Below, piece after piece: positions 2,005 to 55,883 of a stretch of 64,000 nucleotides of DNA (positions within the stretch are counted from its first letter, which is position 1; each line of letters starts with the position of its first letter). A model generated the notes under the pieces. That model was given only the letters and a program-made list of their open reading frames with translations. It made no database searches and was not told where the DNA came from. A program made the translations under genes and the position numbers. Source of the DNA: Narcine bancroftii (Eukaryota); contig NC_091477.1 in NCBI RefSeq assembly GCF_036971445.1, forward strand, positions 105,524,001 to 105,588,000, read 5' to 3'.

Positions 2005-2150
2005 TGGAAACACGAAAGTTTGCAGACGCTGTGATTGTAGTGAAAACACAGGTGCTGGAGGAACTTGTATCTCGCAGCTTCCATAGAAGGGAATGAATGA
2101 TAGGCAACCGAAGTTTCGGGCTTAAGCCCTTCGACAAAGTATGAAAGGAA
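2005..2150 (-). mobile_element. Penelope-derived short element (pLTR fragment)
   Basis: aacacgaaagtttgcagacgctgtgattgtag...gctggaggaact...gtttcgggcttaagcccttc family signature. Confidence 0.6.
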
Positions 2151-2499
2151 CCTTTGTTTAGATCTGGCATAGGGTCAAGATTGCTTCTTATTTCTCTGCC
2201 CTATTCAGAGAAAGACCTAATTTAGCAAGAATTTCTAGTGGAAATCAGTCAAGTGCACAAGTCCTCCCCCCAAATTCAACCAATAAGTGACAGAAGACTA
2301 CCTATTGCGGTGCTTCTGTTAAATCTAACAGCTTCAAATTGCCTGTTTAATAACGTTGTAGCTTGCGTTTTAATAAGTGTTATTTTTTAAAAATTCTGTC
2401 ACCATAAACTTGTTTAACACCGGTTATAGGGGAAAGTATCATCAGCCATTATTGAAGGTATTGTTGCAGCATTTACGTTTTAGGAAAGTTTTGTTTTCC

Positions 2500-3352
2500 T
2501 CTACCACCATCAACCTGGCCCTCATCCGCATATACTTCATTACCCGCACATCTGCCATGGCCCCTTCCGACCCCACGCACAAGGACTGTATTCTCCGTGT
2601 CCTCACCTACCATCCCACCAGCCTCCGTGTCCAACATATCCTCCTCTGCCATCTACTACATGATGCCACCACTAATATAATCCCCACTCAGCCTTCTGCA
2701 GGGACTCCCTTGTACACTCCTCCCTTCCCACCAATTGTCCCCCTGTGACCGCAGGAATGCTCCACTGTCGCCCACACGTCCTCCCTCACCATCATTCTGG
2801 GCCCTACTCCTTTAAAGTGAAACAACATCTCACTTGTGAATCTGCAGGGGTCATCCAATGCTCCCGATGTGGTTTCCTCTACACTAGAGACTGGGAGATC
2901 GCCTTGTTGAGCACCTAGCCTCCATCCATCACAATAGCGTGGATCTCTCAGTGGCCAACCATTTCAATTCCCTGTCCCATTCCCTTGGAGAAATGTCTGT
3001 CTGTGGTCTTGTGCCAGACTGGGACCACCTACGAATTGGAGGAACCACACCTCCCTTCAACCAGATGGCATTAACATCGACCTCTTCTTCCTCCTGTTGC
3101 CTTTTCCCCCTGCTCAGTCTCTCTCTTCCCTTTTCTCTGTCTCCTTTCAGAGCCAAAATCAATTTTCACCTCTTGTCTAATCATATCCAAATCTTTTGTT
3201 GGTCTGGTCTCCTCCCCCTGCTAGTCTTCAGGCTTTACTCTGATGCCTTACTATTCTATGCTTATATCTTGAAGAAGGGCTCAGACCCGAAACATCGGTA
3301 ATATATCTTTACCTCTTATGGACACTGTGAGGCTGGCTGACTTCCTCCAGCA
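2500..3352 (+). mobile_element. Penelope-like retroelement 3' fragment (degenerate GIY-YIG endonuclease plus pLTR)
   Basis: Frameshifted HLTCESAGVI..CSRCGFLY..RLGDRLVEHL..SVANHFNSLSHS, then a pyrimidine-rich tract and ttgaagaagggctcagacccgaaac. Confidence 0.75.
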
Positions 3353-4659
3353 ACCTTTGAACAGTTTTACAGTGAAAGCTTGTAAAATCTTCAAAGATTT
3401 TGTGAACAAACTCCACCAACTCTTTACTATATCAGCATTTAACTCAATTTAAGCAACATCTTTTCCACCAAAATATATAGAGTATTCTGTAAATCTGAGA
3501 AAATATATCTTTAGCAGAATATACATCTGCACTAAACCTTTTGACAAAGTGGAATTTTGAGAGTGCAGTTTGCATGTTAATCCTGTTAGGATTAAAGGCA
3601 AAGTTAACAGGCACAGAGAACCCTGGTTTTCATGGGACATTGGCAATCTGATGTTAAGAAGAGGTGGGTGTACAGGAAGAATAGGCATCAATGAGAAACT
3701 TGAAGAGTACAGAAAATACTAAAAAAGGAAATCAGGAAGGCAAAAAGAAAACATGAGGCTGCTTTGGCAGATAATGTTAAGGTAAACCCAAAGGGTTTCT
3801 ACAAGTATATTAAGAGTAAAAGGAGGAGGAAGAGGGGCTAAATAAATTTGGGAAAAAGAGTAAAAGGATAATAAAGGACAAAATTGGTCCACTGGAGGAT
3901 GTGTGGTCAACTATGTGTGGCGCCTCACGTAATGGCAAGATTTTTTTGCAACAGTATTTATTCAGGAAACTCATATGAAGGGTAACAAACATAAGGAGAT
4001 TAAGGATAAAGGTAGATAAATCCCTCGGGCAAGATGATATTCCCTTGAGGGAGACTAGTGTAGAAATTGCAGGGGCCCTGGCAGATATATTCAAAATGTC
4101 CTTAGCCACGAGTGATGTGCCAGAGAATTGGAGGGTAGGTCAGGTTCTCCTGTTGTTTGTTACCAAGAAGGTAGATGATGGAAAGGCTGTTGATGTTGTC
4201 TACATGGACTTTAGTAAAGCCTTTGACAAGGTCCCACATGGGAGGTTAGTTCAGGTTAAGACCCTAGGTATCTATAGAGAGGTTGAAAACTAGATTCAAA
4301 ATTAGCTATGAAGGAGAAAACAGTGAGATAGTGGATGGTTGCTTCTCAGACCACTCTATCGAGGACATCTACTGGATGTCCACTCTATGGAGGCCTGTAA
4401 CTAGTGGTGTGTCTCAGGAATCTGTGTTGAGACCATTGTTGCTTGTTATCTATATCAATAATCTGATCTGGATGATAATGTTAAACTAGATCAGCAAGTT
4501 TGATGATGACACAGATAGGAGGTGCTGTGGACAAAGAAGTTATTTCAAAACTTGTAAAGGGATCTGGACCAACTGCATTGTTTCATACAGGCAAGTGTGA
4601 AGTGAAGCATTTTGGAAGGGCAAACCAAGGTAGGCCATACACAGTAAATGGGGCACTGA

Positions 4660-6490
4660 GGAACAAAGAATCAGAATCGGGATTTATCGTCATAAACAAG
4701 TCATAAAATCCAGTGTTTTGCAGCAGCACCAGAGCGTAACAGTGCACACAAAGTAAGGCAGTGTCTTTGGTTCATTGATTGATGGCAGCAGGGAAGAAGC
4801 AGTCCTTGTGTCACTGAGTGCTCGTCTTTAGGCTCCTGTACCTGTCCCCTCTGATGATAGCAGAGTGAAGAGGGCATGGCCTGGGTAGTGGGGGTCTTAC
4901 AGGATAGAGGCTGCTTTTTTTAAGTCGCTGTCTTATGTATAATGGTGTCTGTGATGTTGCAGGCCAAGTTAACAACCCTCTGGAGTTCATTATTGTCCTG
5001 AGAGTTGGTGCTTCAATACCAGGCAGTGATGCAACCAGACAGAATGCTCTCCACGGTACACCTGTAGAGGTTTACAAGTCTTCAGAGACAAATCTCACTC
5101 ACAGTATAGCTGCTGGTGAGCCTTCTCTGTGATTACTTCAATGTGGAGGCCCCAGTAAATTGCATTAAAATTAATATCTTCCCAAGGATACAATACCTAT
5201 TTCAATCGTTACCAATTCCCTTAACAGAGAAATTCTTCAATGAGCTAAAGAAAATAAGGAAATTCTTATGGCAAGGGGGGGAAACTGAGGATAGCGCTAG
5301 ATAAATTAACAGAATGGTACAAACAAGGGGGTTTGCAGCTACCAAACTTTAAGAATTATTATAGAGGAACACAATTAAGATATCTATCAGATTTTTATCA
5401 AACAAGGAAAAACAGGATTGGACCAGGATAGAGCTAGATAAAATAGGGGAGAAGGTACCAGAACATATACTTTATAAGTGGGATGAAAAACTGGTGTAAT
5501 ATAGAAGTTCACCAGTACTGCACCATCTGCTCAACATTTGGAAGAAGATTCACGTAGAAAGGAAGAAAAAGCAAATTACCAATTACCAAAATTATTATTT
5601 GATGCAAAATCAACTAATCCCTTTCACAATAGATAACCTTTCCTTTAGAGAATGGGAGAGAAAAGGGATTAAAAGAATATTAAATCAGGTATTAAATAAA
5701 ATCACAAAAAGTAACATGCCAAAAAATCCAGAGATCTTTCTCCTAATATAAGAAGTACAGAATTAGGCCTCAAACTGGGTGAAGCACAAAAAAGATTTAT
5801 TATGATAGCCTTAGCTGTAGCAAAAAAATGTATAATGTCAACCTGGAAATCAGAAGAGAGCCTAAGAGTACAGCAATGGTACATAGAAATGAATAAATGT
5901 ATTCCATTGGAAAAAATAATATAATTTTAAAGTCACATTATTCGAACAAATATGAGAACCGTACATGGAACACAACAGAGAGGGCCTACTGCGGACCTCC
6001 ACCCCCTAAAATGAGAAGACGAAATGAACTGCCCCAGTGTGTAAAAGTAGATGACACCATTTTCTTATTTTCATTGTGTGATGACATTGTTTAATGGGTT
6101 TATTATATTGTACATGTTGAACGTTTAATGGGTTTGGAGGGGGGTGGGAAGGAGGGGGGGGAAAATGACACTGTATATTCAAGAGGGAAATATTTGTATT
6201 TTGGTTAATATGGTTCAGTGTGAAAAATAAAAAATATATTTAAAAAAATGTGGAGGCTCCTGGACAGATTCTCAGAGATGTTGACACCCAGAAATTTGAA
6301 GTTCTTGATCCTTTCCGCTACTGAGCCTTCAATGAGGACTGGGTTATGTTCCTCTAACTTCCTCCACAATCACGTCTTCAGTTTTGCTGACATTGAGCAC
6401 AAGGTTTTTGTCATTACACCATTCGACGAGCTGATCGCTCTCCTGCATGCTTCCTCATTCCCATTTATGATTCTGCCAACAGCTGTGGTG
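4660..6490 (-). mobile_element. Rex1/L2-type LINE 3' fragment inserted in CR1 and split by an L1
   Basis: aatcagaatc repeat tail at ~4668; reverse-strand FKFLGVNISENLS RT-tail motif at ~6265-6305. Confidence 0.65.
5151..6246 (+). mobile_element. L1/Tx1-type LINE, 5'-truncated, with A-rich tail and 11-bp TSD
   Basis: NCIKINIFPRIQYLFQSLP and GGLQLPNFKNYY; AATAAA plus A-tail; TSD AATGTGGAGGC at 5140-5150 and 6247-6257. Confidence 0.85.
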
Positions 6491-7374
6491 ATCAGGTGGA
6501 CAGGGTTGTAGAAAAAGCTTTTGGCATCTTCGCCTTTATAAATCAAAGAATTGAGTCTCAGAGCTGGGATGTTATGTTGAAGTTGTTTGACATTGAGGCG
6601 GCCAAATTTGGAATATTAAATTCTGGTAAACCTAACTAAATACGCTGGAAAGAATGCAGAATAGATTTACTAGGATGTTGCCAGCTCTTCAAGAGTTGAA
6701 TTACAGGGAAAGAGTAAACAGGTTACGACTGTATTGCTTGGAGTGAAGAATGAGGGGAGGTTTATTACAGGTTTACAAGATTATGATGTATCGGCAGAGT
6801 GGATAAAAGTAGGCTTTTTCTACTTAGATTCGGGGAGATAAATATGAGAGGTTATAGTTTTAAGATGAAAGGGGAAAAGTTTAGGGGCAATCAGTCAAAG
6901 TGATTGGAGTGTGAAATGATCTCCCACCTAAAGTAGTGAATGCAGGCTCAATCTTAAATTTTTAGAATAAATTGGATAGATACATGAATGGGTGAGGTCT
7001 AGAGGGTTATGGAATGGGACTAGGGAAATAATGGTCAGCACAGACTAGAAGGGCTGAACGGCCTGTTTCCTGTGCTGTAGCTTTTGATGGTTCCATGCTG
7101 GGTAATTTTGCAAATTAATTGCAGAAGCTGCTTAAACCAGTGCAGCAGTTGACCCAACTGCTTTAAAACCATGAACTCGCCCATATTGCAAGGTTCAATA
7201 CAAAGAGAATGTTGAATTTTAAAGATAATTTATTAGAGCATTTATGAAACATCCAGCTTTGTAGCACCAAAGGTGCAATTCTTCAGCCTCTTTAGTGTCC
7301 AATATGCTGTATTAAATGTTTATGCAACAATAAGAGATGAAGAAACAATCAGTCAATTTAGAATATTGATATTA

Positions 7375-7380: not shown

Positions 7381-7403
7381 TTCAATTTCTGTACAGCATT
7401 TCT

Positions 7404-7427: not shown

Positions 7428-8253
7428 CTGCAAGAGAAATCAAAGACGGTGAGGCACTTGTTTAATGAAAGCATTGAACAGGTTACATCTCAAATTTAGC
7501 TGTCGCTCCTGGGCTATGCATTTGCCCATTTTTCCATCTCTGATACAATAGAGAATTGTCACAGCATCTCGAACAGTCAAGGTTTCACTGATGACTGCCC
7601 ATAAAATTAAAAGCCCATAAACAGGATTTCCTCCCACCATTCTGGGAAGTGGTGGTGATGGTGGAATGGGGTTTTAGATTCATTGGGTGTAATTAGGCAC
7701 CACAGGCTTGTGGGCTGAAAGGGCCTGTTATTGTGCAATATGTCTCAAATAACAATTATAACAGTAGAGTATGGATCAAGTTTGGTCCACTATTTGAGGA
7801 GTTGTGGCTTTGTCATATTCCAGGAATTTAATTACAAAAGGGGGAAAAAAAGCCCTCAGCTAGTGAACCCATCTAAAATCTAACATTTACAGATCTATAA
7901 TGGTTAGTAAAACATCAAACTTTGAGAAATTATTTCACATTAGTTTTGTCAAATGACTAGGTGAACATTGTGGATGAAGCAATGTAGTTACTGTAATTAC
8001 AATGTTGTTCTCCAAGTATATCTAAACTACCAAATGTTGGAATTTACCAAATTTTTTCATCAGATTAACACTATTTAATCTTTTAACAGTGTGGATGAAA
8101 ATTACTGTCAAACTGCAAACTATTAAACATGCAATAACTTTGGTTAATAAAGAATTGACCACAACTTAAATAGTCAATAAACTTGCAAATTCCTGATCAC
8201 ATTTGGAGACTCATGATAAAAATAACTGAAGAATTATTGTTCCCTTTACTTAC

Positions 8254-8398
8254 CACACGAATTCTATGCCCAATTGCCTTTGCAGGCAGGTTACTTCTGA
8301 ACTTTGCACGGACCATGCCACTGTTACCATGAGAACGAGTCACTTTACCCCAAATGACTCGAGTTCTATTTGGTTTACCTCCAGGAGTGATGGTCTTG
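8254..8398 (-). CDS. RPL35A: RPL35A exon 4
   Basis: [48 protein letters not shown]; 145 nt, AG/GT bounded. Confidence 0.97.
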
Positions 8399-8554
8399 CT
8401 GCGAAAAGGACCAAAAGTAACTTGCATTTTATAACACATCACAACTCAATAATGTTAACCAAAACAGCCCCACAAAAAACTGCAATAATCTAAGAAGATG
8501 AGTTAAAATGAAAGCCCAAAACATTAAATTACTGCAGGAAATAACAACTAAAGG

Positions 8555-9080
8555 TGGGAACACAAATTACAGATGCTGGAATTTGAGCAAAGAGAAGCTG
8601 AAGTGACTCAGCAGTCAGGCAGCCTCCATGCCGTAGCAACACTTCGTCAAGAACCCTCTTTGAAACCAATGTGAGAATGAGAGACATCAAGGGCCAATAA
8701 AAGGAAGGCTGGGAAGGGACAAGATGCAATAGGATACTGTATATAGTGGGAAAGACGAAGTGAGGAAGACTAGTTGAGCACTGGGGTGGGTGGATTTACA
8801 TGGAGAGCTCTGAAATGGGCAAGGAAAAATGGGAACAGACAAATTCAATGTTCATGCCATTGGGTTTTAGGCTATGCAGTCTGAATATGATGTGCTGTTT
8901 CCAAGTTTGCACTTGGCAATAGATGTGGGAGAGGACAGACATGTCTATGTGGGAACAAGGAGATGAATTGAAATGCCTGGCAACCAGGACTTCCAGCTAG
9001 CATGTGAGGACAGAATGCAGCTGTTCAATAAAACAGTCACATAATGTGTGTTTGGTCTCGCTAATGTTGAGGAGCCTGAT
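8555..9080 (-). mobile_element. Decayed Penelope-like fragment in RPL35A intron 3
   Basis: cagatgctggaat..actcagcagtcaggcagc end and aaattcaatgttcatgccattgggtt internal motif. Confidence 0.5.
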
Positions 9081-9633
9081 GAAAATGAGGCCAATGTAAA
9101 GTTTGAAGGACTTTGTATAAAATGTCAAGGCACAATGCAAATGAAGCTCATATGAGGTTGTTTAAAAAGCAACACCAAAATTATGTTTTGTACCCAAAAA
9201 TTCATCAAGCATTTGGATTAGGAAATCTAAAATATTAATTAAGTTTCAGCAGCGAGAAAGCATTGCAATAAGCTTAATTAACAAGTCATACTATTCCTAT
9301 ATTGAACATTTCCAATACAAACTTGCATAAAAATTTGTAGAAATCTTATTTACCACATTATTAACAACCCTCAAACAGTGCTGTTTTCCTCCTGATGTTT
9401 ACTAGTTGAATAGAAAATAAAATCACTGGCGCAGCACATAAATTTAACATAAACTAACTTAAAACTATTTAAATTTTTGTTCCTCAGTAACACATGGTAT
9501 AATGAACAAATTCAATGTGGAAATTTTTAATTTGGTTGGAACTTCAAAGTTCATTTCAAAGAAACTTTGTATCAAAATTGGTAATAATATGATAAGAGCG
9601 AAGAAAATGTTACATCAATGATGTATCATTGTT

Positions 9634-10139
9634 GCACAAAAAAGATTTGTTAAGATAGCCCTAGCTGTAGCAAAAAAATGTATTATGTCAACCTGGAAAT
9701 TGGAAGATAATTTGAAAATACAACAATGGTATATAGAAATGAATAAATGTATTCCATTAGAAAAAATAACATATAGTTTAAGAAATAATATTGAAATATT
9801 CGAACAAGTATGGGAGCCTTACATTAAATACAATAGCGAAAACCTACCGGGAACAAACATTACCTAAGTTGATGGAAGAAGAGAAGAAAAAAATGGACTC
9901 AGTAGAATTTCTGGTGTATTTTTGTTGAATGACAACATTGTCTAACTGAATTAATGCAACCTAGATTGTATAACTAAAATGGATGAGAGGGGGGAGGGAT
10001 GGGGGGGTGGCTTGGGAGGAGGGAGGGGGGAGGGAGAAAAAGTCACTGTAAATGTGTGGAAAAGAAAAAGTGTATATCATGGCTATTGTGATTTATGGTG
10101 TGAAAAATAAAAAATTTAAAAAAAAAAAAAAAAAAATAA
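9634..10139 (+). mobile_element. Young L1/Tx1 3' fragment with long poly(A) and 17-bp TSD
   Basis: IALAVAKKCIMSTWK..WYIEMNKCIPLEK, same family as 5151-6246; TSD AATGATGTATCATTGTT at 9617-9633 and 10140-10156. Confidence 0.9.
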
Positions 10140-10203
10140 AATGATGTATCATTGTTACATCAAGAGAACAAATTGAAAACCACAACTCAAAACAGTGCAC
10201 TCA

Positions 10204-10404
<201 letters not shown>

Positions 10405-12859: not shown

Positions 12860-14135
12860 AGGGGGGGGCCGGGGGGAGGGAGGGGGGGGAAGGAGGGGGG
12901 GGCCGGGGGGAGGGAGGGGGGGGGAAGGGGGAGGGGAAGAGGGGGGGGGAAGGGGGGAGGGGAAGGGGGGGGGAAGGGGAAGNNNNNNNNNNNNNNNNNN
13001 NNNNNNNNNNNNNNNNNNNNNNNNNNNNNNNNNNNNNNNNNNNNNNNNNNNNNNNNNNNNNNNNNNNNNNNNNNNNNNNNNNNNNNNNNNNNNNNNNNNN
13101 NNNNNNNNNNNNNNNNNNNNNNNNNNNNNNNNNNNNNNNNNNNNNNNNNNNNNNNNNNNNNNNNNNNNNNNNNNNNNNNNNNNNNNNNNNNNNNNNNNNN
13201 NNNNNNNNNNNNNNNNNNNNNNNNNNNNNNNNNNNNNNNNNNNNNNNNNNNNNNNNNNNNNNNNNNNNNNNNNNNNNNNNNNNNNNNNNNNNNNNNNNNN
13301 NNNNNNNNNNNNNNNNNNNNNNNNNNNNNNNNNNNNNNNNNNNNNNNNNNNNNNNNNNNNNNNNNNNNNNNNNNNNNNNNNNNNNNNNNNNNNNNNNNNN
13401 NNNNNNNNNNNNNNNNNNNNNNNNNNNNNNNNNNNNNNNNNNNNNNNNNNNNNNNNNNNNNNNNNNNNNNNNNNNNNNNNNNNNNNNNNNNNNNNNNNNN
13501 NNNNNNNNNNNNNNNNNNNNNNNNNNNNNNNNNNNNNNNNNNNNNNNNNNNNNNNNNNNNNNNNNNNNNNNNNNNNNNNNNNNNNNNNNNNNNNNNNNNN
13601 NNNNNNNNNNNNNNNNNNNNNNNNNNNNNNNNNNNNNNNNNNNNNNNNNNNNNNNNNNNNNNNNNNNNNNNNNNNNNNNNNNNNNNNNNNNNNNNNNNNN
13701 NNNNNNNNNNNNNNNNNNNNNNNNNNNNNNNNNGGAGGGGGGGGGAGGGAGGGAGGGAGGGAAGGGGGGGGGAGGGGGGGAGGGGAAGGGGGAGGGTGCG
13801 CCGGCCGGGGGGGGGGGAGGGGGGGAGGGTGCGCCGGCCGGGGGGGGGGGGGAGGGGGGGGGAGGGGGGTGGGGAGAGGGGGGGGGGGAGGGTGCGCCGG
13901 CCGGGGGGGGGGGGGAGGGGGGGGGAGGGGGGGGGGAGGGTGCGCCGGCCGGGGGGGGGGGGAGGGGGGGGGGAGGGGGGGGGGAGGGGGGGGGAGGGGG
14001 GGGGAGGGGGGGGGGAGGGGGGGGGGAGGGGGGGGGGAGGGGGGGGGGGAGGGTGCGCCGGCCGGGGGAGGGTGCGCCGGCCGGGGGGAGGGTGCGCCGG
14101 CCGGGGGGAGGGTGCGCCGGCCGGGGGGAGGGGGC
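12860..14135 (+). repeat. G-rich low-complexity/tandem repeat (~20-bp unit GGAGGGTGCGCCGGCCGGGG) flanking an assembly gap
   Basis: At least 8 copies of gagggtgcgccggccgggg among G runs at 13790-14130. Confidence 0.85.
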
Positions 14136-14957
14136 AGACTCTGCCTCTGCCTCTCATTCCAATCTGGTGACCTTCACGTCCAAGTGTTTGTGCATCAGAA
14201 GACGAGTCTTCTCTTGAATGAAAGCTTATCAGATGACTTGTGGGTATCTTTATGGGAAACATCCCATATTCATCCTATTTATTCAACCTACTTGAATTCA
14301 ACCAGATTAGACAGACATGAGTTCTTCATTAATTCAGTCAATGATGTAATGCTAAGAATGCAACTTTTAATATGAGTGCTGCTCATTTCCACAAACAGGA
14401 TTGTGATAATGACAGGAGAAGTGCAGTAAACAAAAGTGGTGGAGAAACTCTCAGGTCATGCAGCCTCGTTGGAAAGCAAAAAGCTTTGGTGTTCTAGGCC
14501 TGTGCCCTTCTTCAGGTGTTCTTCAGTTGCAAGAGGATAATCTGTTTTATCTTTTGTAAAATATTTTACCATCTAATGAAAAAGAAATACATTCACTCTT
14601 TCTTTGAGAAACGTTTCTTATTTTGAAGTGCACATTAAAAAAATTATATTTATTAGTTATATAAATCATTGTTCTTTCATGAGGAGCAGAAGCTATTACA
14701 CTGAATACTTTTCAGCAAAAGGGTAGCTTCACATTTGTGACTTTGTACAAATGTTTTGAGTCATTTATTCTATTATTTTTCATATTTCTAAATGCAAGCA
14801 ACCTGTCTCCAGGCAGAAATGGTGTCTTGTACTGTGTTTTCTGTCCATTTAAATTATTGACCCTTCTATATGTGCAAATACCATTCCCTAGTCTTAAAAA
14901 GAGATCCATGTTCAGATGGAATTTTCCCTCTTGATAATCCAATCTAGCAATGTCTTC

Positions 14958-21960: not shown

Positions 21961-22508
21961 ATTCCTTGTATCTCTCATCACTTTGCTTCTGCTTGATCTC
22001 TATTTCTTTTGGTATTATTCTATTTTGATTACCAATATAATATTCTAACTCGATACACATTTTGTCCCTCTCCATAATCATTTGAAATGTAGATAGGGTC
22101 ACTATTTTCTCTTGCTTACCATTTCTGCCCCTAAATGTTTGAAGAAGTCATTAGGGCCTTCTTGGTATGGTTATCATATTTGTTCTGTTTCATGTTATCT
22201 ATCTGCTTCCAGAATTGCACTGAGGTCTAAGTTTGCACCCTGATTTCACAATCTGCAACTGCCCACATTTTCCCATACCTTGATGAAGGGCTCAAGCCTG
22301 AAATGTTGGTTACATATCTTTAACTTTGTTACATAAAGTATAATGCTTGACCTGCTGAGTTTCTCCACCATTGTGTTTTTACTTCAATCCCAGTATCTGC
22401 AGAATCTCGTGATTTACTCCACTTTTAAACACAAATCGGTTTCAGCACATTCTTTGCAGTTAGCATACACCATTGTATTTGCTTCTCATGCCATATCGAC
22501 ATCGCTAG

Positions 22509-23374: not shown

Positions 23375-23752
23375 CAAACAATTATTTTTTTAAACTGCAG
23401 GTTCTGGAAATTTGAAATGAAAATAGAAAATTCTGGATCACTTAGCAGGTTAGATGACATCTGATTAAATGGTTTTGATCTGAAACATTAACTTTCTCTT
23501 TCCACAGATGCTGCCTGACCTGCTAAATGTTTCCAACATTTTCTTTGAATCTTCTGTTTATTTTAACAATCTTTACCACATTGTTCCATTGCAGTAGTAA
23601 TATTAAAACAAGACGACATTTTATAAAGGTTATACATTTCACTATCTGTTTAAGCCTCCACTTAGACATGTGCTATGACATGGATATATTCTGCTTTATG
23701 CTTCAATAATTCCTGTTTATTCTTTGATTAATAGTTTTTATTTTGTGAATAG

Positions 23753-28849: not shown

Positions 28850-31507
28850 AATTTGGTAGTACTGTTGTTAAACTAATATGGTGGGTGGGGGCAGTGGCTG
28901 AGAATCCAGGCAGAAAGATAATGTAGAGACCAAAGCAAAAGTTAGAAAAGAGAATAGTTAAAATGCAAAGGACACAAAGATTCCTAGATTCTGAAAGAAC
29001 AATGAGTGCAAGGTATTTCATGTTTCACTCCTTTTGTCCCACAAAATAACCTGTGTTGCCAATCAATGCTAGCCAAGTCCTCCTTCATCATATTGTGGTC
29101 TCCCTTGTCAAGGTGAAGCACACTGTCTCTCGATTGATCTAGTGCACCCTCCATCTGAATACTCGTAGTATTTAAAAGATCACTGAAATTATGGGACAAT
29201 CAGTCAAAAGTGATATAACAGCCATTACATATTTGTGGTGGCAGGGTGGAGATGATTGGGAATTAAATATCCAAGCGTATGAGCTAATTCAGAAAGAAAG
29301 GCCAGAAGATAAGGGAGGTGGGGTATTATTGGAGTAAGATTAAGGATGACGTCAGAAAGATAGTGGGAGACCATATAAGATCTAAGGAGCAGAATGTTGA
29401 ATCCACAATGTAGAGATTAGGGTAAGAGACTCCGATAACTCAGTGGTTAGAACTCTGGTCTTAAACCAGGGGTCGCTAGTTTGTTCCTTGTGAGGGGCGC
29501 TGAACAAAATGGCGACTCTCCGTCTTCCTTACAGAAGACAAAATTAAAGAATTTCATGTATATTACATTCTAAATGTAGTATTACATGACAGTAATGAAA
29601 CCATTACCTTTAAAAAATCACTGGTGGGAGTTGTCTACAGGCCACCAAATGATAACATTTTAGTGGCACAGGCAATAAGCCAAGATATATCTAATGCATG
29701 TAAGAATAGAATGATAGTTGTCATGGAGGATTTCACCTTGCACATAGATTGGCAAATCAAGTTGGTTGAAGCAGTGTTGAAAAGGAGTTAATGGAATGCA
29801 TCCGTAATAGCTTTTTTGAAAGCGTTACATGGTATCTGGTCCTCTGCAATGACACAGGTAAAATTAACAATCTTGCAGTTATGTATTCTATCAGAAAGTG
29901 TGATCACAGTATGATTGAATTTCTCATACAAATGGAGGGTGCACTAGATCAATCGAGAGACTGTGTGCTTCTCCTTGACAAGGGAGACTACAATATGATG
30001 AAGGAGGACTTGGCTAGCATTGATTGGCAACACAGGTTATTTTGTGGGACAAAAGGAGTGAAACATGAAAGTCTGCAGATGCTGTGATTGTAGTCAAAAC
30101 ACAGATGCTGGAGGAGCTCAGCCAGTCTCGCAGTGTCCATAGGAGGTAAAGATATATTACTGAGGTTTTTGGCCTGAACCCTTCCTCAAGGTATGATATT
30201 AGCCTGAAACATCACTAATATATATATTTGGCAGAGTTCCTCCAGCATCTCTGTATTTTGACAATATGGTAGACGGTTGAGTATGTTCAACAAAAATATA
30301 TTCCAGTCAAAAACAAGGACAGTAAGGATGGAAAGAGCCAACTTTGGATAACTAAGGAAAGAAAGGCATCGAACTAAAAGTTCCGTCAGACAAAGTCACC
30401 AAGAGTAATGGGAAAACTTTAAAAAGAAACAAAACCACAAGGCAAGCGATAAAGAAAGGGAAGATAGATAATGAAAGTAAACTTCTGCAAAATATAAAAG
30501 CAGGTGGTAAAGTTTCTATAATTATATAAAGAGGAAAATGGTGGCAGAAATAAAAATAGGTCCCTTGGAAGATGAGAAAGGGGAAATAATAGTGGGTAAC
30601 GTGGAAGTGGCTGAGGCTTTGAATGACTATTTTGTGTCAGTCTGCATGGTGGACACATCTGACATGCCAAGGAGAGAGATGCCATGATTGCGATGGGAGG
30701 TGAAGACCTTGATACAATTGCTACCACTGAAGAGGAAGAGCTGATCAATCTAGTGGGCCTAAAGATTGATAAATCCCATGATCTTGATGGAATACATCCC
30801 AAGGTACTGATAAAAATGGCAGAATTTATAGTAGAAGCATTGGTGATAAATTACAGAAATTCTCTGGAGTCTGGGTAGGTCCCTGCTGATTGGAAGGCAC
30901 AAATGTGAAATCATGTTTAAAAAAAGTATGAAGGAAAAAGGCATGTAATTATAGGCCAGTTAGCCTAATGTCAGGAGTTGGGAAAATGCTTGAAGCTCAT
31001 TAAGGAAGAATTAGTAAAACCTCTGCATTGAAGTCATTTCATTAGGCAGATTCAACATGAATTCAGGAAGAAAAGTTCACGTTTGATAATTTTTTTTGAG
31101 GACAGTGGACGCTATACACAATACTAGGATTTCTCGAAGGGCTTTGATTAAATGCCTAATAAAATACTTTTGCATAAGGATTCACAGAGTCATTTATTAG
31201 CATGGATAAAGAATTCGTTAACCAATTGAAGGGAGTTGAGATAAATGTGTTTCTCTGGTTAGCTCTGCAGGGTTTGGTGCTAGTCAAGCAATTCTACATG
31301 ATATGTATAAATGATTTGGAGGAAGACCTCAAGTATGGCCTATCTAAATTTGTTGATAACACGAATTTGAGTGGCAAAGCAAATTGTGTCGCGGAGACAG
31401 TGTGCGGAGAGATAAGGATAGGTTATGCTATTAGGCAAGAGTCTGGAAAAAAATGATGTAAATTTGAGGTTATCCACTTTTAAGAAAATAATAGTAAATC
31501 AGATTTT
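28850..31507 (+). mobile_element. Long decayed CR1 LINE (endonuclease plus RT) in IQCG intron 7
   Basis: VGVVYRPPN, VVMGDF, LKIDKSHDLDGIHPKVL and INDLEE..SKFVDNT motifs. Confidence 0.8.
29428..29612 (+). mobile_element. tRNA-derived SINE inserted in CR1
   Basis: gactccgataactcagtggttagaactctggtctt head; the tail recurs inverted at ~37395-37455. Confidence 0.65.
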
Positions 31508-33461: not shown

Positions 33462-34491
33462 GTAAAATGAGAAGCGTGAATTTCATTTGTAATTGCATGT
33501 CTGGGACCAATCGATCAAACTGTTAAACGGCCTGCTGCAGACAAGACAACAAAGCAACATCATTCACAATAATGTAATTGTACAATATAAACTTTCTTCT
33601 TACGGGTTGACACTGCAGTCAGGATATTCTATTCCTATTTTTAAATTAAAATTTCATATCTCTAAACATGAAAAATCACAACTAAATTTAGCTCAAATAA
33701 ATAAAAAGCAAAGAATTCAAAACAAAATGGGGAATGATTGAGATGATCTTTTAGGTGTAGACTTAAAGTTTTTTAATTAAATAGTTAATGTATATAAAAC
33801 AGAACAAGAGGAATGAGAGTGTAATACATTTAGGGGCATCTTGCAAGTTGATTTAGTGGAAAACAGAGGGAAGTTGGAAATAGTATAAAAAGGCAGAGAC
33901 GTGGGTTAACAGAATTTGTGGTCTTAAGTGTTGGGCACCCCAGCAAGTGGGAACATCTGATTTTTCTGGAACACTTGCTTTATTTAAGAACCATTATAAT
34001 GCTAAATGTTTAGTTCTGATGAAAGTTCATTATCCTGAAATCTTTTCTCCCTTTGCACATTCTACCTGATTTGCTCAATATTTTGAACATATTATTTTAT
34101 TGGTCAGAATATTGTCATGTAAAACGTCAAGTTGCTTGGGACAGATCTCTCACAATTTTATATTAAATAATATAGTTGAGTTTGAAAGTTTGCAAGCTAC
34201 ATCTCTCCTCTGAATATTTAGGATTATGGAAGCATTTAACCAGATTCATCACATTCCTTTTCATGAAAATGTCAACTCGTACTTTTTTGAACATCTCCAT
34301 TTCAAAAAAGGGAAAGCTAAATTGATATATTCTAATATGAAGCCTGCAGTGAATCCAATTGATCTGTAATATTATTAACTATACATCTTTAATGTGGATA
34401 GTGTTGTCTATTTGTTAGATTTGACTTTGGTAGATACTATTACTCTCACTGGATATTCTTTTGTATGAGATTGTATCTCTCTCTTTTGCAG

Positions 34492-34617
34492 CTTCAGTCG
34501 TGGTGGCGAGGGGTCATGGTTCGCAGGGGAATTGGTATCTACAAGAACATTAAAAAGAAAATAGAAGGAAAAGGAAAGCTTAAAGGAAAAGCAAAAAAGG
34601 CAAATAAGAAGAAATAA
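34492..34617 (+). CDS. IQCG: IQCG last exon (IQ motif and basic tail)
   Basis: LQSWWRGVMVRRGIG...KKK*; summed CDS is 1278 nt. Confidence 0.96.
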   Translation, partial: LQSWWRGVMVRRGIGIYKNIKKKIEGKGKLKGKAKKANKKK

Positions 34618-36968: not shown

Positions 36969-39900
36969 CATCACAAAAGCCTCATAAACTTATAGTGCAA
37001 GTTATACATATGTACAAAGGAGACGTGTAATTGACTAAACATGCCTTTTCTTTTTACATAATAATTATCTATACAGTAAACCGGAATTAAAGCCATGGTT
37101 TCCAAGGTTTAGTAGGCCTACCGTGGAAAAATATTTTGAAAAGGATACATATCCAATATTCTACAGCTGTAAGAACACTTATAACAGATTCAGCTGCACC
37201 CAGCAGAAAAAATTGCAACATTGGTATCATTTAAAAAAAAGTGAACATAAAACATTCAACATCTTGTACAAATAACTATACTGTGAGCGACAACCCAAGT
37301 ATTTACAAAATCTACAAATGAAAGGTAAACAAAAAAAAATACTAAACAGGATTGCATGTTTCGCCACAAATTTTTAAGTACTGGTTCCAATTAAAGATTC
37401 AATGTCCCATTATTGTCACATAATACAACATTTAGAATGTAACATACATGAATTTGTTATTGAGATTGGGTGTTAACTTCCTTGTAGATTATCTAATCTC
37501 ATGTATGTCAATTTCAATCTACAGTATTTTATTTCAAAAGCATCCAGCAGAAACACTGGTAATCATTACTCGATGCATCTCAGTTCATGACTGAAATAAA
37601 AGTGGATCCAAACCTAATTCAAGCTCATTGTCATAAGTTAATGTAATTTATTCAATGAATCAATATTATATGCCCGCTGAATACAGTTAATTAGAAATTT
37701 CACTTTTTCCAGGGAGAGGCATACAAAGAGAGATTTATAAAAATTGCACCCTTTCAAAAGCAGTTCTGAATTAGATCTAGAACAATCTAAAACGTGCCAA
37801 TCCCAGAAAACACATGAGAAGATATTCAAGTGTTTAAATATTAGATTTATTTTCAAAACATTCATAATCTCCATTAGGTGAATCTATTTTAAGCTGTAAA
37901 TGAAATAGGTCAAGATTACAGGGTGCAAACAGTGTGGTTGCTGGAAATCAGAAATAAAAATGCAAATATTGAACGTTTGTTCAGTAAGTCAAGTTAACAT
38001 TTTTGGTGAGGAACAGATGATGTTTCAGGTCAATGAGATGTGCTGGTAAAATATCCACCATTTGTCTCCACAGTCAAGATCAATGGAATGACATAACCTG
38101 CGCCAATAGGCAATCTCCAATTTCCTTGATTCAGACAGGAAATGGATCAAAGGACTTCTGAAAACTATTTGGCTGGTAAAATTTTTGATATCAATTACAC
38201 AGGAATGGGAAAGTTGTATTATCAGATGCTCCCTTAAACCAGTACGATTGCAGTTCTAACAATTCAACTTGGGAATGATAAAAATGAAGTCCTAATTCTC
38301 CAGATTCTGTACTGTACCATTCACACCAGAATTTAGGAGCTTAATTAGGAGTATGAATTTTTGTCTTAATGCATTACAAGAAACAATGAATACAGCTGTT
38401 AGTATTGATGAACAGAACTTCTTTCATGAATATTGTTGTTATTGCTATTCAAATTTGTTTTGACATATTAAAAAGTACCAAAATTGTCTAATTTCAAGAT
38501 CCAAAACTACAACTCACTGCCAAGGAATGTTTGGTGCAAGACCTACAGCAAAACAAACTACATCTAAATGTAAAACCAAAACAGAAAAGCATCGCACAAA
38601 TCAAAATGAATGATTGATTTACTTGCTCAAGACTGCTTCAGTTTGGGAAATTTTACTGGTCAGAAGCACACTCTGAGAACAGTCACAGCTTTGTTCCTGC
38701 AGCATTGCTTGTCAACAGCACAAAACTGGCAATTAATATTTAAAAACGTGAAAAATTTTATTTCCTCATTAAAACTAATTACCCTTTCACCTTACTGAAT
38801 CCTATTTGCACTAAACCTCCCTTTATGCAATGATTCAAACCTATTGTAATTAGAGCATCCAAGATTATCCTATGATAGACAAAAATAAATCACCTGTAAA
38901 TTATGATACATCTCATCTGATTTAGTCCTTGCTTTTCTGCAGGAATCAGATCCACAAATAGCTATTGTCCTAATATTTCCATATTATCAGAATCTTCAAA
39001 TATATGATCAAAATGTGTGTCATTTTCTGCAGAAGTATGGTTGACAAATATTACTTCATGCAGGGTGGATGTGCAGAATTAATTTCTTAATTAATGTAAA
39101 TAACTTTAGTTCCTCCCATCTATTTCCAACTTTAAGTCTGGTTAATTTCAATGGGTTTCCAACAAGCCAATCCGATAGACAGTTCGCAACCTTAAAATAA
39201 TGAAAATAATATTACATTTGGTAATAATATCACTATGTAAAGTTTAAAATCAGAACATAATTTGAAACAAAGAATGAACGGCGAGAGGATTTCAGCTCAT
39301 CAGGCAGCATCCATGGGCAGAAATGGTCAGCATCCTTTATTAAGACTAAAGTATAAAGGGGATATTACATCTATGAAAAGGAAAAGGTGGGTGGGGGGTG
39401 TCAAAAAGTGATAGGGGAGTGTGAAAAATAAAAAGTGAGAACATCAGTATGTAGAGATAGAAAGAGTAGAACCAGATAGAGCTGAGGATTATGTAAAATA
39501 AAAAAAAAACAATGTTTATGTTGTCAGGTTTAAGGCTGTCCAGGAGGAACATGATATGTTTCTCCTCAAGCTTACATCGTCCCGACAATGGATGAGGCAG
39601 AGGGCAGACATATCACTGTGGGAACGGTGAAGGGAATTGAAATGGATAGCAACAAGAAGCTCACATCTAGACCACAGATGGAAGCAAACCTGAACTTGAA
39701 CAGAGTGTCTACAATTTAATATGAATACAAGAAAGCATGGCCTGTGATTATATATGAAAAGGAAAGTGCAGGTAAAACTCCATGTTCAAGTTAGGGTCTC
39801 CCTGTGCCACACTTATGAACTGCCCCAAGATTACTTGATCCAAAATACAGTGAAAAGGTAAAATTTAACCACTTTGGTATGGATGAAAATAAAGTATGGT

Positions 39901-51137: not shown

Positions 51138-51819
51138 TTCAGTCCAAAAAAACCCCTGGTACCGGCACCTATGGGGATTGGTAGATACCGAATAAGTGTA
51201 TTGCTTGAGAATTACAATGCCCAATTCATACACTTGCATTAAGAATAAACAGTTTAAAAGACAAAAATACTATACTGTACTTACATTAAACAAATTTCAC
51301 TTGCTTGAATATATAAATCTTACTTTAATTTCAGTCACATTCTTTGAAAACATTTAACGGTCGACATATCTGCAGGTTCCTCCCCATTCCACAGAGCCGC
51401 CCGATAGATGAACAATAACATTAACCCCGCCCTCGCCCAAGTTTACAGATAAAGCCTCTAATCAAGGCGACTCTTACTAAGCAGGGATAAGGATACATTT
51501 TAAGAGTAATCCTAATGGCGAGTGGCATCAGCCAGCTCTTCATCCTGTGAGATGCCATTGTTGTTTCATGCAACTTTATTCAGATGGTACAAGCAAAGGA
51601 TGGCCAAGGCACTCCACTGCCTGAATATTTGCTCACATTATCACCAAAGATTTGTGTTATTTCAGAGAATATTTACTGATACAATTTTAAATGTGTTTTT
51701 TACCTATTATTTTATTCTTATTTATTAAAATTTTTAAAAATATATATTCCTCAATTTTTTTTTTGCCAATTGCATGAGGAAGCCAGTTGCTTGAATTTTG
51801 GAAACCAGGGGTTTTACTG
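51138..51819. mobile_element. Tigger/pogo-like non-autonomous DNA element
   Basis: aaaacccctggta at the left end mirrors ccaggggttttactg|TA at the right end. Confidence 0.6.
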
Positions 51820-52061
51820 TACACAGGAAAGTATTGACTTGGAGTTTGATACAGACATTAAAAACCACTAAATTTAGTTGGAGTACTTTCATGTTCATGT
51901 TGGAGAAGCAGTAAGACAAATTATTGATTATGGAAGGTCAAAACAGGCAAAGATGAGATAAAGTTGAAGAGCTGGATGCCCTAAGTACAGAAGTAAAAAC
52001 TGAGAGTATGCCAGATTCTGTGAAGAATGCTTCTGATACCATTAGATTTCAGAATACTCAC

Positions 52062-52199
52062 CACTGCTGGAGATGGGACATGTATACTAGGGACTGACCG
52101 TGGTCTCACATGATTAGCCAGATGACAGAGGACAACACCATCCGTAAGTGCTGTTCCAAGATCACTTGGGAGTGAAACCTTTAACCGTGTTTCAATGTT
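52062..52199 (-). CDS. LRCH3: LRCH3 CH-domain exon
   Basis: NIETRLKVSLPSDLGTALTDGVVLCHLANHVRPRSVPSIHVPSPAV; 138 nt. Confidence 0.97.
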
Positions 52200-53610
52200 C
52201 TGAGAAATAAATCAGCGAAAAATTGTACAATTCTTGATTGTTTACAAATACATTTTATAAAAAGAAGTATACAGGATTAAGTTAGATTTTTGGTTCTGCA
52301 ACCTTGCTTAAATCCAACACAGGCTAATGGAATACATTTATTTAATTTTTACTGTTTTATAGTGAAAACATTATGTAACAATAAATATGACCCCATTGCT
52401 AATGGGGATATGAACACAAAAGAAAATCAGGTTATTATGCCAAGGATTAATCATTAAGTTGGCATTTACCTTAAAGATGGGTTGAGGTCAAAAATAAAAA
52501 TACTCTCTTTGCTACCTTAAGTACTTTTCTGGGAGAGACATGCAAATTAATGCAAGCACCAGAACCAGCTGATCAAAAGGGAAGTTTTTGGTTTCCCAAA
52601 TAATAATAATAATGCAATTTTTCTTTTCTATTCATGCAAATTGTTGGCAAAACTGGTATTTCATATCAATTTCACATAGTCTGGAGCATGTCAACTGATT
52701 TCAGAGCCTAGTTAGGAGGTAACATACTCTTGTTATGGAGACACCTAGAGTACAGCAGTAAAATAATGCATATTTATTTTCCTCAGTGAGATGATGGAAC
52801 TGGATGTATTTTTAATGCCAATGTCAATCACTGATGCCAGCTTTTCTCCTGGATTATTTAATTAACTGCTTAAAATTCTTATGCGATTTTGATGGGATTT
52901 GAACTCCAGAAGTGTAAAAGGTATTAAAACTGCTCATGTTATGAAACTGCAATCAAGAAGAATGTTAAAGAAATAATTATGAAAGTAAACAAACCTATGC
53001 CATAGAGGAGGACATCTCTGATAGTATGCTATTTTATAATACTCAGTAATTGCTTGGGGATGGTACATCTATAAATGGGAATGAACACAATCTCAGGGTT
53101 TTCAGCATGGCACACTAAAACTACTGCAACACACCTCCAGCAAAATGAGCGCAATCTCATTGTTAGTGCTGTATGGTTTGCATGTTCTGTCTGCTCCAAT
53201 GTCCCAATGAAGATGTTGATTGATTTTGAAAATTGCCTCCAATGTGTTTATGAATTATAGAGTATGTGGGGAGATAATGGGAATGTTAGGAGAATAAAAT
53301 AGCATCAGTATGAATGGTTAGGACAAACTTGGGAGGCAGAAGGGCCGGCTTCTGTGCTAAATGACTTTCGACATCAAGATCTCTAAGCTTTGTTCCAAAA
53401 GTACATTAAGAATCCAGATTTTTTTTGGCAGCGAGGGAGTAAGTGAATAAACCTGGCAGTTAGGTTCCTGGTAAGTACCACTTGGAATCATTCTGTCTTT
53501 AGTTAACTAGTATATTTCATTAACGTTCTACAATCCATCATTGGATCAATTTCTGTGAATCTATTTACTGTAGGACATGCAGTAGTGATTTAATTCTGGT
53601 AGACATTTAC

Positions 53611-53729
53611 CTTCCTTAGCTGCTGCACAACTCTCTGTTCATCCTCATATTGCTTTTGGTTCTGCAACATTATCAGTATTTCAGAATCCTGGCCAGGGCT
53701 TAGAGACGAAGAAGCAGAAAAGCTCCCAT
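53611..53729 (-). CDS. LRCH3: LRCH3 exon preceding the CH domain
   Basis: ...QKQYEDEQRVVQQLRK|gtaaat; 119 nt; phase 1-0. Confidence 0.9.
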
Positions 53730-54277
53730 CTAGAAAATAAAGTCAATTGTGCATTGGTGATTACCAGTGTTTGACATTAGATTCAATGATCTTGGACATA
53801 TTCTTGCTTCAAGTTCCTTTGTTAAGATTCAGTGGGATTAAAACTTTTTGGCTTAAAATGCGTGGTAATTCTTTTTAATCAACTGACAGTCACTCAGTTC
53901 AAACAGCAAAAACAAGAAAGGAATAACTAATTTGGGAAAAATGCAATAGGTAGTCAGTGGACAACTTGATCATCTTTTTCTTCAACATAATGCTGTTCCT
54001 GGGTCAAACTCCTCGAAGTCCCTCCATAACAGCATTGTGGATAGGCAGCTGATCATTACCTTTTCAAGTAGGGATGGGAAATACTGGCTCAAGCTAAGAT
54101 GTGCACAACTCTTGAATGTATAAAAATATAATTTTCTATTGTATCATGATACCTGCATGTATCAGAAATAGTACATACATGCAGAGAAGTGAAAAATTGC
54201 ATGGACCATCATTGCCGCCTGATACAGTTTTCAATAATCAACTGAGTTGGGTGAAATTTACTTTCAATCAGACCCAC

Positions 54278-54394
54278 CTTTTTTCATTTCATCCCGCATG
54301 GCTGCTCTCAAGAGGAAGCTCTCAGGTCGGTAAGCTTGAGTGGACTGTTTGTAAAAGTGGGGAGAAGAACTAGGATAAGGAGAACCAGGCTGGG
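54278..54394 (-). CDS. LRCH3: LRCH3 symmetric exon
   Basis: QPGSPYPSS...RPESFLLRAAMRDEMKKG; 117 nt; phase 1-1. Confidence 0.85.
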
Positions 54395-55883
54395 CTACAG
54401 CCAGACAAAAGGGTATAAGAATGAGCAGAATTTGAAGATAATGTTAAGAAACAAAGTTCGATTAACATTAGTTGGAACAGGGGAAGAGACAGAGATGGAA
54501 ATGAAAAAGAAAAAACAAATATTAAAATAACATAAACACTATAATTTAGGTTGAATGATGATTTGATACATTTGTAATAAGTTGGTTTAAATGTAATGAT
54601 GTTTTTTTTTTAATTGGGGATAACTCGGTTTTCAATTTCACACCTATTACCATTTGCTTTCTTCATTCAATTTTCCCAAACCTATTAATGCATTTCTAGC
54701 CGTTTATAATTTTCACTTTTAATTTCCAACTTTAGAAGAATTTAGAAACAGATTGTTTTGTGAATTGATTACATACTGCATACCCATATTTTTGACAGCT
54801 TGACTCAAAAGTGTATCATTTTATTTTTCTGCTTCAAAAGTTCAAAGACAACATCACTATGTTTTTTTCCCCCCATTGGCAATTCAAAAGTAGCCACAAG
54901 CTACTTAACTGAGAAAAGAAAGGGTGATATAGACAAGCTTTAACAGCACAAACAAGAAGTACAAAACACTTACCATGTAATCTATTTCACCTTTAAGCCA
55001 AATGATATTGAGACAAATTGAATTATACCAATGTAGGGCCAAATGTCATCACTGAAGTAAGCACAGATCTAGATGGTCAGTATCACCCAAACATTATGCC
55101 CCAAAAGAACTAATAACTCTATTTATATTCTTACTCATGAGTCCATCATCAGTCTATCAGGAAATGTGAAGCTATGCTGAGCTATGCTCAGAGACTGATT
55201 ACTGCAAAGTGTTTTAAAGTTTTATGAACAAACTGTGACATTACTAGACTTAATAAGCATTTTGAAACACCTGCCATGATTATTTTGTTAACCAGGTGGA
55301 TAGATAATATTAGATAATAAAATCCCATAACTGAACTTTGATCTGTGTGTAATACAAAGCAAAAATTCTGGAGCAGCTCAACAATTAATACGGCATTCTT
55401 TATGTAGCAAACATAAAGATAAACAACCAACACTTCGGGCCTGAACCCTTCATCAAAGTATGAACAAAAAGCAGGCAGGCGCCTGAATAAAATGGTGAGG
55501 GGAGGAGCACAGGTTCACAGGCAAAAGGTCATAGGTGGATATGGGTGGGAGAGCATAAGAGAAAAAAAAGCTAATAAGTGATGGGGGAGGGGATAACTGA
55601 ATAGAGAGGGAAGGGGGATAGAGAGCTGAAGAAAAGGAGAAAAAGGCTGAAACTTCTCCGGTTTCCATTAGGACCCGGCCCTGTCTCCCTCTCTTCACCA
55701 TCGCTCTTTTGTGTAAACTACTATCACAGCATCTGCAGATTTTCTTGTTTAACTTAATACAATGCAGTAATGTTTAAAAATAAGTATTTTACTTCACATC
55801 AAAAGAAGAAAACACAATATACACTATTTCATTTATATAGTCAGGGAAACTGCAGAATGTTTTTGATATAGGTTTTCTCTTAC

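Follow-up and report, generated by a model that had tools for sequence, protein, structure and literature searches.

The six hammerhead-like motifs in this window (the whole 64-kb stretch of Narcine bancroftii DNA analysed here) are very probably degraded minimal type I hammerheads that open the 3' pseudo-LTR (pLTR) of a Penelope-like element (PLE) family, likely Neptune, whose copies are 5'-truncated, partly inverted and likely catalytically dead. As damaged copies of a motif described in 2014, they are ordinary and likely inactive. An earlier note on this DNA had read them as Penelope-derived minimal type I hammerheads, and their position, strand and architecture indeed match published PLE motifs.

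All six copies listed in that note were recovered at their coordinates and strands. A 23-letter degenerate core pattern matches five times in the window, against 0.00 expected from 100 shuffles, and misses copy 3 (14489), for which more than 3 mismatches are needed. The repeat had been described as a ~37-nt unit; by profile and sequence, the motif is the start of a ~150-bp unit, and a profile of this unit, built from three of the six copies, finds 6/6 at E 1e-44 to 2e-8 (best match in the reversed-window control, E 5.9). Covariance model R1 matches copies 1, 2, 4 and 6 and misses copies 3 and 5, the four matches being partly circular because the R1 loci were picked with a pattern from these copies. 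Pattern scans of viral contigs and of prokaryote genomes gave 0 matches; a U3 pattern spaced as in the window matched none of 123 metagenome loci, and no metagenome locus showed DNA similarity to the window at E 1e-4. The earlier placement in introns of IQCG and LRCH3 holds for four of the six, which are in IQCG-like or LRCH3-like genes. Copies 1 and 2 (2107, 3262) lie outside, between a DUF4630 ORF (604-1374) and the RPL35A 3' exon (7407).

Table 1. Penelope-derived features of the window, with positions counted from its first letter
Feature	Position	Strand	Description	Support
Coreless fold-back	1601..1811		subfamily B; arms 1706-1601 (-, tail-less) and 1715-1811 (+, with tail)	profile E 3e-5, 6e-11
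Copy 1	1999..2144	-	5'-truncated pLTR unit, subfamily A, with tail	profile E 3e-44 (training copy), R1 E 0.007
Copy 1 core	2107-2140	-	U3, A6U, G16.2U	
Decayed PLE ORF end	2479..3013	+	frameshifted, with stops	
RT thumb region	2479-2652	+		PLE profile E 8e-6
Cys linker / start of EN	2772-2882	+		PLE profile E 0.14
GIY-YIG C-half	2888-3013	+		PLE profile E 4e-7
Pyrimidine-rich stretch, EN to hammerhead	3014..3262	+	ORF end and 3' UTR	sequence
Copy 2	3263..3354	+	pLTR unit, subfamily A, tail-less	profile E 7e-19, R1 E 2e-6
Copy 2 core	3266-3299	+	U3 at 3269, G12 at 3289, stem II mismatch at 3285, G16.2A	
Copy 2 predicted cut	after C17 at 3296	+		
Older PLE remnant, RPL35A intron	8559..9071	-	EN C-terminus 9071-8841	E 2e-6
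Eroded pLTR of that remnant	8630-8559	-	hammerhead past recognition	profile E 2e-5
Copy 3	14422..14518	-	diverged pLTR unit, third subfamily, tail-less	profile E 2e-8; R1 misses
Copy 3 core		-	C3; G12, A13, 16.1, 16.2 lost	
Copy 4	22272..22423	+	pLTR unit, subfamily B, with tail; sense in IQCG-like gene	profile; R1 E 2e-4
Copy 4 core		+	U3, C11.1U, C15.2U, U17; least damaged of six	
Copy 5	30051..30197	-	pLTR unit, subfamily A, with tail	profile; R1 misses
Copy 5 core		-	U3, C11.1A, G12A, G16.2C	
Inverted arm, head-to-head with copy 5	30202..30262	+	tail-less	BLAST; profile 30229-30262 E 9e-4
Copy 6	55348..55463	-	pLTR unit, subfamily B, tail-less; sense in LRCH3-like gene	profile E 8e-17, R1 E 0.028
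Copy 6 core		-	U3, A15.1G, C15.2U	
Inverted tail piece at copy 6 5' end	55708..55754	+	profile 103-149	E 4e-7

The Penelope origin is anchored by RT-thumb, linker and GIY-YIG remnants lying 257 nt upstream of copy 2 on the same strand, found with a PLE protein profile whose underlying proteins carry RVT_1 and GIY-YIG (best match on the reversed-window control, E 0.33). Coding DNA is reached by this copy alone of the six. The pyrimidine-rich stretch that follows the remnants is continued by contigs of the family and can be loosely aligned to the sequence before copy 6, where ~240 bp of the element's 3' UTR are present. Of the metagenome motifs that share this architecture, 63 have at least 500 nt of upstream sequence; of these, 15 have a PLE match on the same strand (two of these rows being one contig) and 4 on the opposite strand, with a gap of 76-164 nt from the EN end where that end is reached. 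Searches with the two PLE ORF fragments gave no match in Pfam and nothing among the 52 and 36 candidates of word-indexed protein searches; a further search returned one database match (E 7.5e-4). A CX2-5CxxC linker occurs in 24/24 homologues with an EN motif, and the window holds its broken remains over two frames. From the linker motif in the homologues, the family likely belongs to the Neptune clade. Neither an intact element of the family nor a partial tandem was seen in the 64-kb window; for want of the former, we infer the exact hammerhead of the source element.

The core is recognisable and damaged throughout. UGANGA is present in 5/6 copies; as the earlier note had it, U occupies position 3 in five copies, always with G8 (C3 in the sixth), and an A stands between A9 and G10.1 in all six. 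The pair U3-G8 recurs in 3/130 metagenome matches. Stem II closes (10.1-11.1) with G-C in three copies, G-U in two and a mismatch in one. Stem I is 77.8% paired across the six copies and spans 3 bp, at most 5 bp with a bulge, and there is no stem III loop. A register placing C3 one base earlier, with an inserted U, was rejected because stem I would break. The central hairpin had been said to keep its pairing while its sequence varies: pairing does persist (91.7% of stem II cells), but the variation is loop change plus CpG and transition decay and does not reflect selection for structure. Covariation within the six copies is absent, with both-side change in 0/9 pairs (score 0.178 versus 0.255 in shuffles), stem I included. 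Over 45 picked motifs from other organisms stem I does covary (79 double-change cells versus 31 shuffled, 0/500). The GAAAC-GTC end is intact in none of the six copies, the ACGU dimer palindrome is kept in none, and part of GAAA is lost in three. Every copy has at least two departures from core or palindrome, in keeping with the earlier caution that activity was unproven, and on this reading of their letters all six are likely catalytically inactive today.

Beyond the core, the ends of the units carry the imprint of PLE insertion. At three fold-back loci the arms stand head-to-head; one arm reaches profile position 148-155 while its partner stops at 112-117, leaving a ~35-40-bp tail on one 3' end alone. 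The 30202..30262 arm begins, by eye, in the 3' strand of stem II. Unequal arm tails are a PLE signature, and PLEs are described with an inverted arm and a 30-40-bp tail on one side (PMC11167929, PMC8557442). Copies 1 and 2, separated by 335 bp without PLE similarity, are a candidate single inverted insertion. By eye, no target-site duplications were evident at five copies. The six fall into two or three subfamilies (A, copies 1, 2 and 5; B, copies 4 and 6; the third, copy 3). The unit is abundant, with 10,428 matching contigs in the own-species DNA run X2 and 1,517 (run X5) and 6,513 (run X6) in other organisms. In X2, CpG transitions reach 32% (C11.1U), 27% (G12A), 14% (C15.2U), 29% (C17U) and 33% (G1.1A) of summed depth; four adjacent non-CpG sites show 2.6-4.5%. 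These shares come from 40 of 60 difference rows and are summed contig depths, which favour the letters of copy 2 and should not be read as numbers of copies. In the same terms, catalytic G12 is lost by CpG decay in about a quarter of family depth, and G stands at 16.2 in 35-62% of it despite the A of copy 2.

If the family behaves like the PLEs studied so far, its RT-GIY-YIG protein would cut one DNA strand and prime reverse transcription near the pLTR end, starting at one of two sites ~35-40 nt apart, which would yield two classes of 3' ends. Early stops would leave 5' ends at variable distances upstream of the core (~7 nt, 250 nt, >790 nt), and an inverted truncated arm would often be added at insertion. 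Hammerheads of two tandem pLTRs in the source element may pair via the ACGU palindrome; their cleavage after C17 would be weak and possibly aided by the element's protein. Inserted copies would then decay neutrally, mostly at CpG, in which the core is rich.

Could the ~150-bp unit instead be a non-autonomous, SINE-like pLTR derivative that amplifies itself by borrowing the PLE protein and starts just before the hammerhead? We consider this unlikely, though it has several points to its credit: copies 1, 4 and 5 begin within a few bases of one point ~7 nt before the core, depth drops ~50-fold upstream of 3260, loose contig ends before 3268 agree only 0.39-0.45, and there is the subfamily structure. 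However, copies 2 and 6 run on into element 3' UTR or ORF, the loose ends, by majority letter, read as that same upstream UTR, and the diverged upstream part of copy 2 by itself lowers depth; 5' truncation or template folding also predicts a common stop near a stem-loop. It is highly improbable that the units are non-LTR retrozymes, tandem ribozyme repeats cut into small circular RNAs, as the earlier note had suggested in calling them retrozyme-like. The motif is a type I hammerhead, as in animal retrozymes, for which a PLE-related origin is proposed (PMC7229834; bioRxiv 10.64898/2026.07.22.740005), and tandem retrozymes are reported in a chondrichthyan genome (the bioRxiv preprint, 2026). One contig of X8, a run guessed to be RNA, has head-to-tail joints (3327->3271, 3352->3295), and X2 has single go-back joints; for 1500-3600 no RNA run is listed, which does not bear on expression. 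But the retrozymes of those sources form head-to-tail arrays with circular RNAs and carry canonical hammerheads with a 6-bp stem I and loop 1-2 contacts, whereas the motif here is minimal, with a 3-bp stem I, and tandem repeats occur at 0/6 loci. The loci hold PLE ends that are truncated on the 5' side and bear inverted arms and tails; with no tandem arrays, these are not retrozymes. The X8 variant spectrum equals that of DNA (G12A 27% in both), so there is no enrichment for intact cores, and 46% of X8 pieces continue into unlike sequence.

Exaptation of some intronic copies as active ribozymes or RNA elements of host genes is less probable still. Copies 4 and 6 are sense in their genes, and the predicted minimum-energy structure of copy 4 contains stems I and II; yet of five copies folded as monomers none exceeds its shuffles in stability (z -0.85 to 0.05), neither gene offers a sense-strand partner bearing a full core, and core changes are present in all copies without compensation. 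Least credible of all is a chance hammerhead likeness within an unrelated repeat. In its favour, besides the unremarkable folding, an Rfam scan of the whole window yielded 6 weak matches and no hammerhead at E up to 10. Minimal hammerheads, though, lack the stem III that Rfam models expect. The likeness to published motifs speaks against chance, which is largely refuted by the PLE remnants, the stem I covariation across organisms and the PLE matches upstream of the metagenome motifs.

The motifs explain a common repeat and extend a class known since 2014 by one example, probably from a cartilaginous fish; they are no new system. U3-G8 looks ancestral in two subfamilies. Tentatively, and with more doubt than confidence, we suggest that the source elements of both already had this uncompensated wobble yet reached thousands of copies across several related species, in which case either the core cuts as a dimer or with help of the element's protein, or the lineage amplified massively with a crippled ribozyme. 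If true, a vertebrate Penelope family offers a natural test of the need for hammerhead cleavage in PLEs. PLE hammerheads show low in vitro activity, and mutants were without effect on insertion in the Anolis system; an abundant family whose U3-G8 core is ancestral would provide a comparative handle on the role of these ribozymes. U3-G8 has published precedent, and the six copies are themselves too damaged to serve as test material.

How do these remnants compare with known elements? Poseidon PAc of Anolis (Frangieh et al. 2024, PMC11167929) has a pLTR hammerhead, as here, and its tail is set by a choice between two RT start sites, as proposed here, but it belongs to another clade and has C3-G8; its cleavage needed protein, and core mutants were without effect on in vitro insertion. 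Neptune C-terminal EN+ PLEs, as described by Craig et al. 2021 (PMC8557442), share with the window the order of RT, linker and GIY-YIG (the CX2-5CxxC motif being reduced to broken remains in the window) as well as 5' truncation, inverted arms, the one-sided tail and the pLTR hammerhead; unlike them, the window has decayed fragments only, and no partial tandem. The closest parallel is the PLE minimal hammerhead of Cervera and De la Pena 2014 (PMC4209133). The earlier note had called the core a variant. In that source the extra A before stem II is normal, and the U3-G8 combination has been published too, in 1/56 motifs of Fig. S3 (Saccoglossus; two others have U3-A8), and U3-G8 or shark motifs may also be listed in Lunse et al. 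(RNA Biol 14:1499; cited in PMC6765202). Cartilaginous fish are not among the 56. Window copies differ in keeping U3 with G8, each with further damage. Otherwise the published motifs are likewise type I with a short stem I, and their consensus has, like the majority of the window family, an extra nucleotide between 9 and 10.1, G10.1-C11.1, GAAA, palindromic 15.2-16.2 and UH. They lie on the sense strand directly after the GIY-YIG ORF, mostly as single dispersed motifs of truncated elements with some opposite-strand pairs, as here, and the Acropora Neptune motif of Fig. S3 agrees with the window family in its 3-bp stem I, its 4-bp GGGC stem II capped by a tetraloop and its ACGU-C end.

All six hammerhead-like motifs reported in the earlier note (copies 1 to 6, with cores near 2107(-), 3262(+), 14489(-), 22275(+), 30160(-) and 55425(-)) were recovered. 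A degenerate core pattern matched five of the six, with 0.00 matches expected in 100 shuffles, and self-comparison and alignment revealed each motif as only the start of a ~150 bp common unit, 67-85% identical between copies over aligned parts. Copies 1, 2 and 5 form subfamily A, copies 4 and 6 form subfamily B with a coreless locus at 1601-1811, and copy 3 is a third type beside these two clear subfamilies. A unit profile built from copies 1, 4 and 5 picked up 15 pieces of the window with E < 1, all six copies among them (best E in the reversed-window control, 5.9). A 145-bp inverted repeat of 96.5% identity within LINE-like DNA (29016-29160 / 29926-30070) takes in ~20 bp at the end of copy 5 plus flank, and looks like a later inverted duplication. 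The family is large: contigs matching 3180-3400 number 10,428 in an own-species DNA run (X2), 1,223 in a run guessed to be RNA (X8), and 1,517 and 6,513 in two runs of other organisms (X5 and 55% of X6), all being contig counts, not copy numbers.

DNA preceding copy 2 encodes the broken end of a Penelope-like ORF. Direct searches with the window ORF fragments were weak, yielding a single protein (P0001, E 7.5e-4), which as a query retrieved 31 proteins, the best named one from a bamboo shark, suggesting that the host is probably a cartilaginous fish; of three scanned for domains, all have RVT_1 and two have GIY-YIG. A profile of the 31 places three collinear pieces before copy 2 on the hammerhead strand (see table; best control E 0.33). 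The CX2-5CxxC linker, present in 24/24 homologues with a recognisable endonuclease (EN) motif, is a feature of Neptune and Nematis, but not of Penelope or Poseidon, in the available part of Craig et al. (PMC8557442). The 5' end lies ~7 nt ahead of the core in copies 1, 4 and 5, ~250 nt in copy 6 and >790 nt in copy 2, and head-to-head fold-backs occur at 1601-1811, 30051-30262 and 55348-55754, where unit-profile positions 148-155 mark the end of one arm and 112-117 that of its partner. Inverted arms with a one-sided 30-40-bp tail are described for Penelope-like elements (PLEs) in the accessible text of PMC8557442, and the tail is traced to two reverse transcriptase (RT) start sites in that of Frangieh et al. 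(PMC11167929). Variable 5' ends, inverted arms and a one-sided tail are diagnostic of PLEs and, with the same-strand ORF remnant before copy 2, bear out the proposed Penelope-derived origin. The six motifs are decayed minimal hammerheads in truncated, likely Neptune-type Penelope ends, of a known kind. Older Penelope remnants at 8841-9071 (-), 39285-39779 (-), 63848-63973 (+) and 23485-23539 (+) comprise EN ends, an RT piece (E 0.09) and eroded pseudo-LTRs (pLTRs), their hammerheads past recognition.

Coding features in the window
Feature	Position	Strand	Evidence
PLE ORF piece	2479-2652	+	profile of 31 proteins, E 8e-6
PLE ORF piece	2772-2882	+	profile of 31 proteins, E 0.14
PLE ORF piece	2888-3013	+	profile of 31 proteins, E 4e-7
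L35Ae exons	8200-10404	minus	domain match
IQ motif exon	34402-34614	plus	E 0.003
CH domain exon	51984-52211	minus	domain match

From domain matches and vertebrate synteny, we take the genes to be RPL35A, IQCG and LRCH3. Of the suggested placement in IQCG and LRCH3, the analysis confirms that copies 3-5 fall within the IQCG-like span and copy 6 within that of LRCH3; copies 1 and 2 belong to neither and lie upstream of a 256-codon open frame at 604-1374 (-) with a DUF4630 match (E 3e-6). Where the IQCG-like gene begins, a G-rich simple repeat (12860-14134) surrounds an assembly gap of 751 bases. LINE-type reverse transcriptase remnants, presumably CR1-like by their motifs, occur at 57034-57657 (+; RVT_1 E 4e-9), 3979-4290 (+) and 30511-30875 (+).

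An Rfam scan of the window returned no hammerhead match, and monomer folds of five copies were no more stable than shuffles. The layout is that of the minimal hammerhead in the available part of Cervera and De la Pena (PMC4209133), which combines a short stem I and a conserved nucleotide inserted between positions 9 and 10.1 with G10.1-C11.1 and palindromic 15.2-16.2. Because that conserved nucleotide is part of the published motif, the extra A before stem II is the norm rather than a variant feature. The same text describes mainly single dispersed copies derived from truncated PLEs, some opposite-strand pairs, and low activity even as dimers.

Every copy is substituted, as first noted, with at least two departures from core or palindrome. 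Copies 3 and 5 lack G12, the general base; copy 1 has lost A6 and copy 6 A15.1, and none of the six keeps the ACGU palindrome. The hairpin variation is not compensatory: 0/9 pairs changed on both sides across the copies. In contigs of the four runs, the commonest family-wide changes are CpG transitions. In X2 they make up 14-33% of the depth at positions 11.1, 12, 15.2, 17 and 1.1, compared with 2.6-4.5% for changes at four neighbouring non-CpG sites. X5 and X6 resemble X2, apart from a lower value at 15.2 in X6 (4%); X8 shares the CpG spectrum, but its non-CpG values are noisier (6-23%). This spectrum is the expected outcome of methylation-driven decay after insertion, which hits the hammerhead general base.

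Seen in the window and contigs are remains of PLE coding DNA, motifs placed and oriented as in a pLTR, truncated and inverted copies, a tail, high copy number and CpG decay. By analogy with other PLEs, the element protein would nick its target and start reverse transcription internally, tandem pLTR hammerheads may dimerise via ACGU, and cleavage after C17 would be weak or protein-assisted. In the accessible portion of PMC11167929, insertion in an Anolis system is unaffected by core mutants and no RNA reads end at the cut site, results in keeping with the spread of a family whose core is weak. The alternative of retrozyme-like units fails at the six loci, none of which is a tandem array; retrozymes are described as tandem arrays with canonical hammerheads in the available parts of PMC7229834 and bioRxiv 10.64898/2026.07.22.740005. 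One X8 contig on 3271-3352 (depth 27) has head-to-tail joints of partial units and may be tandem DNA or a circle, the contigs alone fitting both.

The sole point worth following in these Penelope ends is that their U3-G8 core appears to be ancestral. U3 did not arise by CpG decay. It occurs in 5/6 copies spanning subfamilies A and B, T>C at 3269 is absent among the 40 of 60 difference rows listed, and the largest listed group of 5' loose ends starts at 3268, matching through U3, in all four runs. Together these suggest that U3-G8 is ancestral in the family, the contig evidence being subject to seeding bias. An uncompensated U3-G8 wobble would be expected to lower hammerhead activity, and our literature search found no paper that tests it. 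C3-G8 is a pair covarying to U3-A8 in the available part of Perreault et al. (PMC3088659).

Scanning one-eighth of a metagenome collection (123 loci) gave 130 matches to the layout, duplicates included, with position 3 being C in 119, G in 7, U in 3 and A in 1. A same-strand PLE match accompanies 15/63 motifs with enough upstream DNA, among them locus L076, where a U3-G8 minimal hammerhead (1456-1498 (-)) lies 164 nt behind a GIY-YIG frame; from another organism, it is an independent instance of this core state. Locus L005 carries a 595-codon RT-linker-GIY-YIG frame 139 nt ahead of an intact C3 motif, and L005/L006, L039, L046, L090, L111 and L122 each have two minimal hammerheads on opposite strands. 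Stem I covaries strongly in 45 motifs (79 double-change cells vs 31 shuffled), a hand-picked set (44 of 77 non-redundant plus L059, leaving out likely chance bacterial matches and near-duplicates) with stem II and palindrome preset by the search pattern. In a partly circular search of the window, the top matches of their model are four of the six copies (E 2e-6 to 0.03); copies 3 and 5 escape it. The 56 motifs in the available part of PMC4209133, none from cartilaginous fish, comprise 53 with C3, two with U3-A8 and one, from Saccoglossus and within a PLE, with U3 and G8; the Acropora Neptune motif there has a layout identical to that of the window family.
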